IMG/VR virus record: IMGVR_UViG_3300037400_003880
Source of the DNA: a virus
Lineage: Duplodnaviria > Heunggongvirae > Uroviricota > Caudoviricetes
Reading direction: 5' to 3' (one strand)
Length of the DNA stretch: 29,267 bases
Below, in pieces: positions 1,562-21,856 of the stretch; within the stretch, counting starts at the first letter, position 1; every line of letters starts with the position of its first letter. The notes beneath the pieces are model-generated. The model was not told where the DNA came from. It searched no databases and saw nothing but the letters and a program-made list of their open reading frames with translations. Position numbers and translations under genes: made by a program.

Positions 1562-2689
1562 ATGTTAGAAATTCAGAAGTTCATTCATGCTCATGACAAC
1601 TGGCGGGAGCTTTTGGCTGACGCGCCTTATAACTTGAAGATTTCTGAAGACGACGGTTATGTTCTCTTCAAGTATAATCAGATCAACTCTGACTTCACCG
1701 AGAAGATTTGTCGAGAGGCTCGTGGTCTTATCCTCGATTCCACTAACAACTTCAGCGTTGTAAGACTTGCCTTCGAGAAGTTTTTCAACCTTGATGAACA
1801 GTATGCAGTTCATATCGACTGGGATACTGCGGTCGCAACCGAGAAGATTGATGGCTCCATTATGTCTGTTTGGTATGCCCGCGGCAAGTGGCATTTAAGT
1901 ACAAATGGGACAATTGACGCATTCAAGGCAGAGCTCGGCGGCATCGGCCCGTACAAGACTTTCGGGGAACTCTTTGAGTCTGTATTGCCGCTGTCTACTT
2001 TCGAGAACTACAACAAGCATCGTTGCTGGACTTTTGAACTGGTATCTCCTTATAACAAGGTAGTTATCAACTATCCTGAGACTAAGGTATATCTCCTCTC
2101 TATTCGTGATATGTATTCTCTTGAAGAGCTCGACCTTGAAGCAGTAGAAATGATTGCAGATACTAACGGGATTACTGTACCTAAGCGTTATGACCTTAAC
2201 AACGAAGCTGACTACCGTCAGTTGGTTGAGCAGATGCCCGAAGGTCACGAAGGTATTGTTGTTAGAGATGCAATGGGACGGCGTGTGAAGATTAAGACTC
2301 TCCTTTACTTTCAAATGCATAAGGCTAAGAACAACGGAGTAATCACTTTGGAACGTATCGTTGATTTAATCAGAGCAAATGACCACTATGAGTTCCTCTC
2401 TTACTTCCCTGAGTATCAGTCTATTTTTGATAACATTGCTGAACAAATGACTGTTGCAAACCATCGAGTAACTGCAATCAAGGGGGTAGTAGAAAGATGG
2501 AAGATGGAGCATCAGTTTGTAGGTGACGTGCGTGCGCAGCGCAAGTATTTTGCTCAATATGTAAGGAAGGAAAACTTCGCGCCATTATTATTTGCAGAAT
2601 ATGATGGGAGACTTGACACTTTGCTTCAAAATATTACTACTCCTAAGTATATTTCGTTGTTTCATATTGTTTTACCGGAGGTTAGATAA
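1562..2689 (+). CDS. rnlA: T4 Rnl1-like ATP-dependent RNA ligase
   Basis: Nucleotidyltransferase motifs: ATEKIDGS (I), TFELVSPYN (III), EGIVV (IV), RVKIKT (V); LFKY, CREARGLILD and KFFN near the N-terminus. Confidence 0.9.
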   Translation: MLEIQKFIHAHDNWRELLADAPYNLKISEDDGYVLFKYNQINSDFTEKICREARGLILDSTNNFSVVRLAFEKFFNLDEQYAVHIDWDTAVATEKIDGSIMSVWYARGKWHLSTNGTIDAFKAELGGIGPYKTFGELFESVLPLSTFENYNKHRCWTFELVSPYNKVVINYPETKVYLLSIRDMYSLEELDLEAVEMIADTNGITVPKRYDLNNEADYRQLVEQMPEGHEGIVVRDAMGRRVKIKTLLYFQMHKAKNNGVITLERIVDLIRANDHYEFLSYFPEYQSIFDNIAEQMTVANHRVTAIKGVVERWKMEHQFVGDVRAQRKYFAQYVRKENFAPLLFAEYDGRLDTLLQNITTPKYISLFHIVLPEVR

Positions 2690-14206: not shown

Positions 14207-14241
14207 AAGGACTACCAGTAGTTAGCTACTATTGGGAAGTC

Positions 14242-14374
14242 TGTCAGCTCTGGCGTGCAGAATTTAAGTACGCCCCGCCTTTTGCAGCTTCAGCGGTAGT
14301 TGAAACTGTTGCACATCGACTAATTAAGTCATGCCGAGAAGTGATTGGAGGTTCGAATCCTCCCCTGACCTCCA
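14242..14374 (+). ncRNA. non-canonical tRNA-like element
   Basis: perfect T-arm GGAGG-TTCGAAT-CCTCC and 3' TCCA; GTCAG/CTGAC acceptor-like pairing; no canonical anticodon arm. Confidence 0.45.
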
Positions 14375-14612
14375 GAATTGCGGCGGATGTCTGCGGACTA
14401 AGCCTTGAAAATTAGATGCGTCTAATTTTCTAATGGTCGGGTGCGCTAAGTATGATTAAAGCGGCTTCGCTGGTAGATGCAGGAAAAACGTAAACCCTGT
14501 TGTGCGGCAATTCTAGTAGTTTATAAAAGAAAACGCTCGGTGCACAGAGAGAACTCGAAAGGGGCGGAATTGCTTAACAAAATAGTGCTTGCCGACGGGT
14601 GGGCGCTAATAT

Positions 14613-20051: not shown

Positions 20052-20294
20052 ATGCTGTTTTATGAATCTAAGTTCTGCGATTGCTGTAAAAGAAAACTGA
20101 CACTTCCTTATTACTATGAGCGAGAAGATGGTTGCTACGCTTTTCGAGTCGATACAACTGAGGGTGTAAAATGGATTTGTTCCACTTGCTTGTATGCCTA
20201 CAATATCCTTGATAGGCTCCCCAATGAAAAAGAGCGCTTGATGGATAGAAAATCTCTCATGAAACGGAGAGAACAAGAGAAAAAGTTTAATTGA
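20052..20294 (+). CDS. small Zn-finger-like protein (CDCC...CSTC)
   Basis: 80-aa ORF ending in the next promoter. Confidence 0.55.
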   Translation: MLFYESKFCDCCKRKLTLPYYYEREDGCYAFRVDTTEGVKWICSTCLYAYNILDRLPNEKERLMDRKSLMKRREQEKKFN

Positions 20295-20319
20295 CTTTTC
20301 TGAAAAAATATGATATAAT
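20291..20319 (+). promoter_or_regulatory. sigmaA-type promoter
   Basis: TTGACT-N17-TATAAT. Confidence 0.85.
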
Positions 20320-20479
20320 ATATATAGAGAGTTGAGAGAGAGCAGGAAATCAACTTCCTCTCGATAAGGTTCCAGTGTGAATCCCAAGTTAGGTTTCTGG
20401 AGCTGAGATAATTGGGGATACGGATCGGTGCCGAATCGCCGTGAAAAGGTTCGGTGAAAGTTCCTCTCAACCTTTAAAT

Positions 20480-20557
20480 GCCGGCGTGGCGCAACTGGAA
20501 AGACGCGCGAGCCTCAGAAACTCGATAGTGTGGGTTCGAGTCCCACCGCCGGCACCA
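20480..20557 (+). tRNA. trnL-CAG: tRNA-Leu(CAG) with short variable loop
   Basis: GCCGGCG/CGCCGGC acceptor; Leu-type D arm; loop CT-CAG-AA; variable region only ATAGT; A73; CCA. Confidence 0.8.
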
Positions 20558-20677
20558 GAGGAGTTTGATTGTCCCATGCAATATGGGCGGGAGCCTTCTC
20601 CTTGAACAAAAAGGGCGAACAACGATGCGGCTACAGCATTGAATGTGAGAGGAAGTGCGCATACCTCAAGTGGCACA

Positions 20678-20779
20678 GCTCATGTCAAATCCGTAAGATA
20701 GGTTCGATTCCTATTTTAAGCATTGGAGTGCGACGGGTGATAGGGACGGATGGAGGTTCGAGTCCTCCCATGAGCACTA
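20678..20779 (+). ncRNA. twin-T-arm tRNA-like RNA A
   Basis: GCTCATG/CATGAGC + ACTA; two TTCGA T-arms; internal ATCCGT/ACGGAT stem. Confidence 0.6.
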
Positions 20780-20819
20780 ATTATAACATTGTTTCTTTCA
20801 AAAGTTAGCAAATAAATAT

Positions 20820-20848
20820 TTGACTTTTTTGAAAAAATATGTTATAAT
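20820..20848 (+). promoter_or_regulatory. sigmaA-type promoter
   Basis: TTGACT-N17-TATAAT. Confidence 0.85.
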
Positions 20849-20927
20849 ATATATGTAAGATAAAGAAAAGGGCGGTAAACAAAATGCCCACGTCAATCCT
20901 CTTTTGAGGAAGAAAAGGAGAAAGCGT

Positions 20928-21314
20928 ATGTTTATGGATTTCACTAACGTAGAAGACAAGTCCGTTAAGACTGTAGCTCGTGCGACTGGTGTAGCGGAGC
21001 TTGAAGCGTGGCTCAAGGAGAACTTCGGTGAAGCGAATGTAACTCAGACTGGTTCTGGTGATTTCGCTGTGGCTCTCGGTGAGAAGGGCAACGAGGTTTG
21101 CGTTGAGTTCAGCGTAACTGCCAAGGATGTGTTCGACCGCCAGACTCCCAAGAAGGGACTTGTAAAGGCATTCGATCGTAAGGCGGCAGGTGACAAGTAT
21201 AAGGCAGACCGTGAGAAGGCTGAAGCAAACAAGGCAGCTCGCAAGGCAGTATCCGACAAGAACAAGGCTCGTGATAAGGCAAAGCGGGAGGCTGCGGCAG
21301 AAGCAGAAGACTAA
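20928..21314 (+). CDS. hypothetical protein, paralog family B, Lys/Ala-rich tail
   Basis: AAGGAG RBS; VTAK motif shared with 22092 and 28671. Confidence 0.75.
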   Translation: MFMDFTNVEDKSVKTVARATGVAELEAWLKENFGEANVTQTGSGDFAVALGEKGNEVCVEFSVTAKDVFDRQTPKKGLVKAFDRKAAGDKYKADREKAEANKAARKAVSDKNKARDKAKREAAAEAED

Positions 21315-21440
21315 TTGATTTAAGCGGCACGTGGTTCGGTACGGTTTCTGAATGACCCCGCTATAAAAATGTGGTGTAATTGTAACCGAGGTGCGCCTTA
21401 CCTAACCTTTCATCTTTGATAAAAAACGTTAAGGCAAAAA

Positions 21441-21540
21441 TGACCAGAGAGACTTGGATAGCGACCACTCCCATGAGTGGTAAGTGTGGTTCAATTCCAC
21501 CATTTGGAGTAAGGGCAGGTTCGACTCCTGCGCTGGTCAT
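21441..21540 (+). ncRNA. twin-T-arm tRNA-like RNA B
   Basis: TGACCAG/CTGGTCA closing stem; T-arms GTGG-TTCAATT-CCAC and GCAGG-TTCGACT-CCTGC. Confidence 0.6.
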
Positions 21541-21544
21541 AAAT

Positions 21545-21617
21545 CGCGCCATCGTCTAAGAGGTCAGGACGAGTCCCTTTCAAGGACTAAATGTGGGTTC
21601 GATTCCCGCTGGCGTGA
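21545..21617 (+). tRNA. trnE-TTC: tRNA-Glu(TTC)
   Basis: AGTCC-CTTTCAA-GGACT; no encoded CCA. Confidence 0.9.
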
Positions 21618-21673
21618 TGTCCTTAAAAAATTATGACTGCCGGCACAACTGCCGGAGAAAAGGAGAATGCCAA

Positions 21674-21856
21674 ATGAGAAAGCAGAATCAGAAGGTTCAG
21701 ACTCGTCAGATTACCGCAGGTGTTACCCTGACTGGTACGAAGTCTGTGGAATGGTGGGACGAGCAGGTTCGGAAGGATGTCGCAGCTCGGAAGGAAAACT
21801 TCTATACGAAGGACGTTTACTTTACGCCCGACTTCCAGCTCAAAGCTGAGGGCTGA
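21674..21856 (+). CDS. small hypothetical protein
   Basis: AAGGAG RBS, ATG 21674. Confidence 0.6.
   Translation: MRKQNQKVQTRQITAGVTLTGTKSVEWWDEQVRKDVAARKENFYTKDVYFTPDFQLKAEG

Follow-up and report, generated by a model that had tools for sequence, protein, structure and literature searches.

One of the tRNA operons of a large rumen phage (a phage-like contig of ~183 kb from ruminant gut samples) contains an element of 99 nt (20678-20776, + strand), here called RNA A, that has the acceptor end of a tRNA together with two T-arms. The question raised by this locus is whether a tRNA-shaped sequence that appears unable to decode is a functional RNA, and if so, what kind of partner such an RNA could engage. 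The window, meaning the whole stretch of 29,267 nucleotides that was analysed, is rich in tRNAs, with 15 tRNA genes and one tmRNA. The original prediction described the element as an anticodon-less tRNA mimic with a second T-arm and a D-loop-like hairpin; here its parts are located, its alleles in related phages are compared, and it is set against similar RNAs in other phages and against known tRNA-like systems. The comparison of alleles indicates that RNA A is a real and conserved element, and argues against chance or debris.

Structure of RNA A

One tRNA criterion is a 7-bp acceptor adjoining a T-stem of 5 bp whose 7-nt loop fits the consensus TTCRANY, and all of these parts are found in RNA A, where the outer T-arm abuts the 3' acceptor strand with zero spacer in a tRNA-like arrangement (Table 1). 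The acceptor stem GCTCATG/CATGAGC with its trailing ACTA and the canonical T-arm in its normal place were both found where they had been predicted. The interior contains the two further elements that had been described there, a second T-arm, whose hairpin loop TTCGATT matches the T-loop consensus, and a GCA-TTGGAG-TGC hairpin. For a site picked at random in this window, a perfect 7-mer complement is expected at a distance of 40-250 nt upstream with p ~0.019.

Table 1. Coordinates of RNA A, of its operon and of related features, numbered as in the window unless another contig is named
Feature	Position	Strand	Remarks
Complete phage tmRNA	8383-8732		The only one by ARAGORN and Rfam
Promoter-like site (TTGACT, 17 nt, TATAAT with TG)	20291-20319	+	11/12 consensus matches
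tRNA-Leu(CAG)	20480-20557	+	CCA encoded; directly upstream of the spacer; replaced by tRNA-Lys(CTT) or tRNA-Lys(TTT) in relatives
Spacer, 120 nt	20558-20677	+	Travels with RNA A as a single block; near-identical in L229-L232, recognisably homologous in L004
Leader hairpin GAGG-AAGTGCGCATA-CCTC, then AAGTGGCA	20649-20667	+	Ends 10 nt before the 5' end of RNA A
RNA A, acceptor stem 5' strand GCTCATG	20678-20684	+	All 7 positions form Watson-Crick pairs with 20769-20775; first pair G-C (short allele) or A-T (long allele)
RNA A, closing helix 5' strand ATCCGT	20689-20694	+	Aligns with the D-loop AATCGGCA of the long allele; helix specific to the short allele
RNA A, inner T-arm ATAGG-TTCGATT-CCTAT	20698-20714	+	Stem extendable to 8-9 bp (AAGATAGG/CCTATTTT)
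RNA A, D-loop-like hairpin GCA-TTGGAG-TGC	20720-20731	+	Motif ATTGG-N-GT; stem invariant, N variable
RNA A, purine-rich linker GACGGGTGATAGGG	20732-20745	+	Alternative pairing with the 3' strand of the inner T-arm (CCTAT/ATAGG); partly kept in the long allele
RNA A, closing helix 3' strand ACGGAT	20746-20751	+	Adjoins the outer T-arm
RNA A, outer canonical T-arm GGAGG-TTCGAGT-CCTCC	20752-20768	+	Pairs 2 and 3 are G-C/A-T in the short allele, A-T/G-C in the long allele (GAGGG/CCCTC), a two-sided change
RNA A, acceptor stem 3' strand CATGAGC and discriminator A73	20769-20776	+	A73 at 20776, then CTA, no CCA
Second promoter-like site	20820-20848		Strong, as is the first site
RNA B, second two-T-arm RNA	21440-21540	+	Consists, in this order, of T-arm, TTGGAGT, T-arm, closing helix; lies 4 nt before tRNA-Glu
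Long allele in L004	2441-2615		
Long allele in L229 (184.9-kb contig)	~1942-2116		

The interior had also been drawn as a domain closed by ATCCGT/ACGGAT, and this part of the description stands only in its components: both strands of the helix are present, but the helix is confined to the short allele, which is the form carried by the window, and the fold of the inner domain is not established. As drawn, the fold has an energy of -28.0 kcal/mol, which becomes -32.2 kcal/mol when the inner stem is lengthened to its 8-9 bp form. The lengthened fold equals the minimum free energy (MFE), other folds tie with it, and the MFE structure pairs CCTAT with the downstream ATAGG instead. Thermodynamics alone does not single out the drawn inner fold; the folding z-score against shuffles is only -1.58.

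RNA A had been expected to be a tRNA-derived, anticodon-less RNA of the kind that tRNA finders overlook, and the two programs behave accordingly. The Rfam tRNA model (RF00005) scores it at 27.5 bits, below the gathering threshold of 29 bits, and does so through the acceptor stem and T-arm only; the Rfam alignment passes over the D-arm, and RNA A has no D-arm after positions 8-9. ARAGORN makes no call on RNA A whether or not introns are allowed, and neither Rfam nor ARAGORN with introns allowed finds an anticodon arm in it. A tRNA interrupted by an intron was considered as a separate candidate and rejected, as ARAGORN with introns calls neither RNA A nor the nearby RNA B and no removal of a segment restores a cloverleaf.

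The only 7-nt loop in RNA A that could be taken for an anticodon loop is TTCGATT, where position 37 is U rather than a purine; two such "anticodon" loops would be present in the long allele. With this U at inner-loop position 37 and no anticodon arm, RNA A cannot decode, as far as its sequence tells. CCA is encoded in none of the RNA A alleles or RNA B homologs, as opposed to 12 of the 15 tRNAs of the window and five of the five tRNAs of L004, a related phage; however, three of the 15 ordinary tRNAs in the window also have no CCA, so its absence says little either way. Recognition of tRNA by anticodon nucleases, T-box riboswitches, and RelA goes through the anticodon loop or through pairing with a codon or specifier, and the T-box also requires a free NCCA end. 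RNA A had been suggested as a decoy for any of these three, which is unlikely for an RNA that has neither an anticodon loop nor an encoded CCA. RNase P, named in the same suggestion, would be a plausible target, as would other factors that recognise the elbow and the acceptor/T minihelix.

Alleles and relatives of the locus

Relatives were found through homologs of the 128-aa protein encoded just downstream of RNA A. The short allele recurs in three more assemblies (L230-L232) and in one DNA run, and these copies differ inside RNA A only in the TTTT linker, which is one T shorter. A longer form with 175 nt and three T-arms, the long allele, is present in two related ~185-kb phages (L004 and L229), and contains a D-arm, two inner T-arms, and extra hairpins. 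Since L229 pairs this long RNA with a spacer almost identical to that of the window, the short and long forms are alleles of one locus. A third allele is represented by only ~30 nt, in RNA-library contigs, and departs from the others immediately after GCTCATGTC, continuing as a D-arm-like AATTGGCA. Every allele has A as its discriminator, and the 3' flank following A73 is CTA in the window, ATT in the L004 long allele, and TTG in the strain of run X3.

Sequence changes between the short and long alleles bear directly on structure. Among the 12 outer pairs, three are changed on both sides (acceptor pair 1 and pairs 2 and 3 of the outer T-stem) and none is broken, which supports structural constraint on RNA A. 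In both alleles the acceptor helix stops at exactly 7 bp, as the flanking bases are unable to pair. In the inner T-stem two pairs are changed on both sides and one of the five, the terminal one, is broken; the short allele has the stem ATAGG/CCTAT and the long allele has GTGGG/CCCAC and GCGG/CCGC, all paired under an identical TTCGATT. The MAFFT alignment of the 3' module places the inner T-stem off by one column. Within the interior, conservation is highest in the 3' part of the insert, which holds the motif ATTGG-N-GT. The three RNA A versions have A, T, or C at N, and a third family (L082, 8150-8262) has G; the putative GCA/TGC stem is identical throughout, without variation. From these comparisons, the outer minihelix and the inner T-arm or T-arms have comparative support and the closing helix is specific to the short allele. 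The two-sided changes are few events, as there are only two truly different full alleles in addition to the ~30 nt of the third, and these alleles may be recombined cassettes rather than orthologs that diverged gradually.

The region of the closing helix can be followed from one allele to the other. In the long allele the acceptor is followed by a D-arm-like TCC-AATCGGCA-GGA, then by a hairpin, and then by a T-arm. The short allele has AATCCGTA at the position of this D-loop; the GG is lost and the segment is the 5' strand of the closing helix, which is probably a remodelled remnant of the D-arm. A protein-coding function of the open reading frame at 20569-20808 was also considered, and is excluded by a 1-nt indel and by the 76-nt difference in allele length, both of which fall inside the frame.

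RNA B lies between an mRNA and tRNA-Glu, and was expected to share the layout of RNA A. The two RNAs do have the same order of parts, and RNA B supplies variation of its own: among five distinct sequences, there are two-sided changes at four positions of the closing helix, two of the outer T-stem, and one of the hairpin. Four of these sequences have TTCAATT as the inner loop and the fifth has TTCGATT. T-loops normally vary between purines at position 57; read as an anticodon, the same change would switch CAA to CGA, which argues against decoding.

Searches beyond these relatives returned little. A blastn search of 20300-21700 against 50,697 phage records gave no match, pattern scans of IMG/VR for RNA A, RNA B, and the leader found nothing, and the neighbouring proteins have no relatives there; the phage clade is absent from the phage-record collection and from the IMG/VR copy searched. 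The T-arm/acceptor pattern GGTTCGAGTCCNNCCATGAG occurs at 52 loci in IMG/VR, nearly all of them ordinary tRNAs and none a relative of RNA A. A scan of JGI metagenomes gave one homolog of RNA B (L082), the remainder being unrelated pairs of adjacent tRNA-like pieces. In genome contigs the 3'-module pattern had no match, and the leader pattern was found at eight loci, none of which has RNA A. RNA A was not found beside homologs of the neighbour proteins P0003, P0005, P0011, and P0014-P0017; the closer P0014-P0017 contexts (L095-L097) have protein genes where the window has the RNA operon, and two others (L098, L099) have tRNA islands without RNA A.

Two-T-arm RNAs in other phages

The architecture of RNA A is not restricted to its own clade. 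A search of IMG/VR for pairs of T-loops at a spacing of 28-58 nt gave at least 120 loci, with 80 unique sites among the matches listed. A 7-bp closure next to the outer T-arm is present at 23 of the 80 unique sites listed, compared to 3.3 in offset controls. Of the 23 closed elements among the matches listed, 17 are not reported as tRNAs by ARAGORN, and some, such as L161, L148, and L176, are like RNA A in size and layout. RNA A itself fits the two-T-arm layout, in which the T-loops are ~30-60 nt apart, there is a single 7-bp acceptor-type helix, and the RNA is not decodable. The name "twin-elbow" for this two-T-arm class denotes an informal grouping, not a published family. The scan thus points to RNA A as a compact member of a recurrent phage class, not a one-off.

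Operon context and transcription

Following the promoter-like site at 20291-20319, the unit consists of a leader RNA, tRNA-Leu, the spacer, and RNA A, without a protein gene. The presence of promoter-like sites on both sides and the lack of any terminator-like site found between 20291-20319 and 20820-20848 suggest that RNA A is co-transcribed with tRNA-Leu. RNA-library contigs from three studies contain either the leader with the 5' two-thirds of RNA A or the leader with the start of the third allele. These contigs touch 20523-20749, and the promoter-like sites are also heavily covered; as assembled contigs, they show presence and not ends or level, and positions that they leave uncovered carry no weight. 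They hint at transcription of RNA A, and carry-over of DNA or read-through could also produce them.

The window also encodes an RNA ligase of the T4 Rnl1 type, an RlaP-like nucleotidyltransferase, and a BrxL-like ATPase. No partner protein for RNA A was identifiable in the window, and no Ro60/TROVE match was found among 14 distinct window ORFs (10 compared with PHROGs and 10 with Pfam, 6 of them with both).

Possible functions of RNA A

The preferred reading, held tentatively and at slightly less than even odds, is that RNA A is a non-decoding RNA derived from a tRNA, which would mimic the top half of a tRNA and engage a protein that recognises the acceptor/T helix together with the elbow. The transcript probably runs from the promoter through the leader, the tRNA, and the 120-nt spacer into RNA A. 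A 7-bp acceptor stacked on a T-arm is the minimal shape recognised by RNase P and RNase Z, and since RNA A has a perfect 7-bp acceptor stacked on its T-arm, it is probably excised as a ~99-nt species. RNase P would cut before G20678 and RNase Z after A20776, releasing a stable RNA; the RNase P cut at the 5' end of RNA A would also create the 3' end of the spacer RNA. Within the excised molecule, the second T-arm and the D-loop-like hairpin with its GG probably form a second self-capped T-loop or elbow. In the long allele and in the L082 type there are roughly as many GG-loops as T-loops, a match that is less clear in the short allele; this can be read as each T-loop being capped as in the elbow of a tRNA. 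RNA A would then occupy or recruit a tRNA-processing or tRNA-modifying enzyme, or a host nuclease that targets tRNAs, and would never enter decoding.

Processing could also be the purpose of the element rather than a step in its release. RNA A would in that case be the by-product of a module acting in cis, in which the RNase P cut at 20678 forms the 3' end of a conserved spacer RNA or the fold caps the operon transcript against exonucleases, an explanation that is considered unlikely. The spacer and RNA A do move as one block behind three different tRNAs: the CCA immediately before the block belongs to tRNA-Leu(CAG) in the window, to tRNA-Lys(CTT) in L230-L232, and to tRNA-Lys(TTT) in L004 and L229. 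The leader hairpin has a constant loop, GAGTGNNCATA, over stems that covary (GAGG/CCTC, GAGC/GCTC, and GGGA/TCCC), the hairpin and the 8 nt leading up to the cleavage site are identical between diverged alleles, and further unusual tRNA-like genes, in L001, L004, L006, and L098, are preceded by this hairpin too. The location of RNA B between an mRNA and a tRNA would also suit a processing role. However, an ordinary tRNA or a bare minihelix would suffice for such a role, which leaves the one to two extra consensus T-arms and the ATTGG-N-GT motif unexplained.

The tRNA island could alternatively have generated RNA A by neutral recombination between its numerous T-arm sequences, which are nearly identical, as a scrambled and decaying tRNA, perhaps formerly of Leu type, that is transcribed and has no function. 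Whole modules distinguish the alleles, and deleting the stretch between two identical copies of GGTTCGATTCC would turn the long form into the short one; the Rfam tRNA model still scores the first 66 nt of the long allele as a degenerate cloverleaf (20.9 bits), the acceptor and T-arm sequences resemble those of phage tRNA-Leu genes in IMG/VR, and aberrant tRNA-like genes are numerous in these phages. Decay does not predict, however, that among outer pairs none of 12 would be broken, and in the inner T-stem only the terminal one of five, despite five two-sided changes, nor that the helix would stay at exactly 7 bp with the T-loop consensus intact in every inner arm. The same architecture also recurs far above controls in unrelated phages, among the matches listed, and debris is considered quite improbable.

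LeuRS reads A73 and the tRNA core, and a minimal tRNA-Leu without an anticodon arm can be leucylated in vitro. That RNA A receives CCA and is aminoacylated by a synthetase that ignores the anticodon, such as LeuRS, to serve as a non-ribosomal donor, as a sponge for EF-Tu or a synthetase, or in decoding through CGA, nevertheless seems very improbable: A73, the Leu-type acceptor sequence, the 3-bp D-stem with a GG loop kept in the long allele as in class II tRNAs, and the ARAGORN tRNA-Ser call in IMG/VR (L052) that takes a T-arm-like hairpin as an anticodon arm (CGA) favour it, but the inner loop has U at position 37 and occurs twice in the long allele, the short allele has lost the D-loop GG, no allele encodes the CCA that most of the surrounding tRNAs do, and the RNA B orthologs switch what would be the middle anticodon base.

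The preferred reading of RNA A as a mimic of the top half of a tRNA can be extended to the widespread class, although the extension is doubtful. Members of the class would keep the acceptor, the T-arm, and in some cases the D-arm of a tRNA as a scaffold, in which one or more extra GG-capped T-loop modules replace the anticodon, and would titrate or redirect in trans a host factor that reads the elbow or the acceptor end, the number of elbows being tuned by gain and loss of cassettes. Candidate factors in such a titration are an anticodon-independent tRNA-cleaving defence nuclease, RNase P, RNase Z, and the CCA-adding enzyme. Phage tRNA genes have been described as a counter to host tRNA-cutting nucleases.

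A rumen phage clade keeps modular tRNA-shaped RNAs that appear unable to decode, and elements of the same two-T-arm design are present in many phage contigs unrelated to it. Binding to a defined host or phage protein would make these RNAs a new layer of phage control over tRNA biology and a natural counterpart of the engineered "tRNA scaffold" used for RNA expression. If they are only processing signals or debris, they would still account for a class of sequences that tRNA finders miss or misname.

Comparison with known tRNA-like RNAs

The mascRNA and MEN-beta RNAs have a tRNA-like fold, and cleavage by RNase P defines the 3' end of the RNA upstream (MALAT1 in the case of mascRNA). This makes mascRNA a model for processing in cis; it is, however, eukaryotic, with one T-arm and a shortened anticodon arm, and its Rfam model (RF01684) matches true tRNAs in the window only, not RNA A. 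The tRNA-like domain of tmRNA is processed by RNase P and, like RNA A, combines an acceptor with a T-arm and has no anticodon arm. RNA A differs in having T-A at pair 3, with no G3:U70, and in having no mRNA-like part or tag frame. The tmRNA model gives no match on RNA A and weak matches on the T-arms of RNA B only (17 nt at 21515-21531 and 11 nt at 21488-21498).

The inner domain of RNA A resembles YrlA and the Y RNA-like family (RF02553), which are also non-decoding and have a tRNA-like module with a T-arm before a D-arm; in RNA A this order is that of the inner T-arm and the GG hairpin, closed by a helix. The RF02553 model has no match on the window at E values up to 10, and gives 13.9 bits (E=6) on the long allele, where the cut-off is 69. 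Unlike YrlA, RNA A has only 5 nt between the inner T-arm and the GG hairpin, with no closed acceptor-like hairpin at that place, has no Ro60-binding stem, and ends in an open tRNA-type acceptor with a free 3' end. The interdigitated double T-loop motif of T-box stem I, RNase P, and the L1 stalk is described as two pentanucleotide T-loops arranged head to tail, which form a flat platform that stacks on the tRNA elbow (PMC3664808). The T-loops of RNA A, by comparison, are ordinary 7-nt hairpin loops on separate stems.

The literature search found no description of phage tRNA-like RNAs with a second T-arm or without an anticodon, or of natural tRNA scaffolds, with the older papers on T4 stable RNAs lying mostly beyond its reach. 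The nearest published precedent that is verifiable from sequence appears to be T4 species 1 RNA (rnaC; AF158101, 70908-71046), a small stable RNA at the far end of the tRNA cluster beside species 2 RNA (rnaD); the GenBank annotation gives no function for either species. Like RNA A, rnaC has a canonical T-arm (CCGGG-TTCGAAT-CCCGG) followed by an acceptor-like closure, and a long interior that is not tRNA. It is 139 nt long, however, with a single T-arm and an imperfect acceptor helix containing two U-U mismatches; there is zero sequence similarity between the two RNAs, and neither is in any Rfam family. Read as a phage tRNA-like stable RNA of this general kind, RNA A is set apart by the perfect 7-bp pairing of its acceptor, by its second T-arm, and by the D-loop-like hairpin.

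RNA A and its flanking sequences

The block formed by RNA A, the tRNA-like RNA with two T-arms and no anticodon arm, and the 120-nt spacer in front of it is nearly unchanged between close strains, while the preceding tRNA differs. The tRNA-Leu of the window (20480-20557) shows 15 differences from its counterpart in X3, a sequencing run with a close strain, and in the loci L230-L232 it is replaced by a tRNA-Lys(CTT). In these sequence comparisons the RNA A unit seems to be fixed, with tRNA cassettes swapped around it. Between the promoter-like site and the tRNA-Leu lies a leader of ~150 nt (20326-20479), which is partly kept in L006 (1150-1200). The leader has no Rfam match and is a candidate for an additional structured RNA of the RNA A operon.

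Several aberrant tRNA-like genes of the phage clade have a leader hairpin upstream, in which the loop is kept, the stem covaries, and AAG follows 3'. In three gut metagenome-assembled genome (MAG) contigs this hairpin is found directly 3' of a -10-like box, and short genes begin there. The hairpin may be a signal for protein binding or for protecting RNA ends.

Positions of the leader hairpin, RNA B, and tRNA-like genes with inserts in the window and in loci from other assemblies (L numbers)
Feature	Position	Description
Leader hairpin, loop GAGTGNNCATA	window 20649-20672	4-bp stem, then AAG
Leader hairpin, further loci	L001 1281; L004 1042 and 2412; L006 2122; L098 5553; L101, L103, L104	
RNA B	window 21440-21540	two-T-arm RNA
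RNA B homologs	L006 3723-3824; L062 1148-1248; L082 6706-6806; L098 1952-2052	
tRNA-like gene, acceptor GGGGCAT/ATGCTCC	L001 1380-1488; L004 ~1243-1350; L006 ~2223-2330	
tRNA-like gene with inner mini T-arm	L082 8150-8262	

RNA B and its homologs

The closing helix of RNA B, the second two-T-arm RNA of the window, has 8 bp, with two-sided changes at four positions. Among the homologs the hairpin varies and the inner T-arm is invariant. The motif GGAGTAAG is present in this type, and a tRNA-Glu or tRNA-Leu always begins a few nucleotides 3' of the two-T-arm RNA.

Other tRNA-like genes

In the window, a perfect orphan T-arm (GGAGG-TTCGAAT-CCTCC, 14347-14363) is followed by CCTGACC-T-CCA; no perfect 5' acceptor strand to match was found within ~140 nt, and the region 14207-14380 may be a further tRNA-like RNA carrying a long insert.

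Several IMG/VR phage loci also contain unusual genes. At L129 4972-5120 (3300018430_000106) and L147 6613-6776, a complete tRNA (tRNA-Phe(GAA) in L129, tRNA-Arg in L147) is enclosed by a second full tRNA-like gene, in its apparent anticodon loop; the outer genes end in CCA, and in both cases one tRNA is nested whole within another. ARAGORN calls L052 388-468 (3300031951_004675) a tRNA-Ser(cga), with a Leu-type acceptor and D-arm and an "anticodon arm" (TCGGG-TTCGAGT-CCCGA) indistinguishable from a T-arm; the gene is either a genuine CGA decoder or a misnamed two-T-arm mimic. Genes of 62-68 nt in L034/L039 and L036 have an acceptor stem, D-arm, and T-arm, with only a short unpaired linker replacing the anticodon arm.

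In the L001 1380-1488 type, the acceptor contains an alanine-type G3:U70 pair, A73 is present, CCA is encoded, and the T-arm is canonical; ~70 nt of non-tRNA interior replace the D and anticodon arms. Its 3' end, TATGCTCCACCA, also occurs in L082 and L098 genes that ARAGORN calls as an odd tRNA-Arg(cct). The L082 gene with an inner mini T-arm has a normal acceptor stem, a D-arm with loop AATCGGCA, and an outer T-arm; its "anticodon stem" (ACGC/GCGT) surrounds a hairpin, the mini T-arm (GGG-TTCGATT-CCC), and ATTGGGT. Judged by this arrangement of sequence elements, the insert follows the logic of RNA A on a fuller scaffold.
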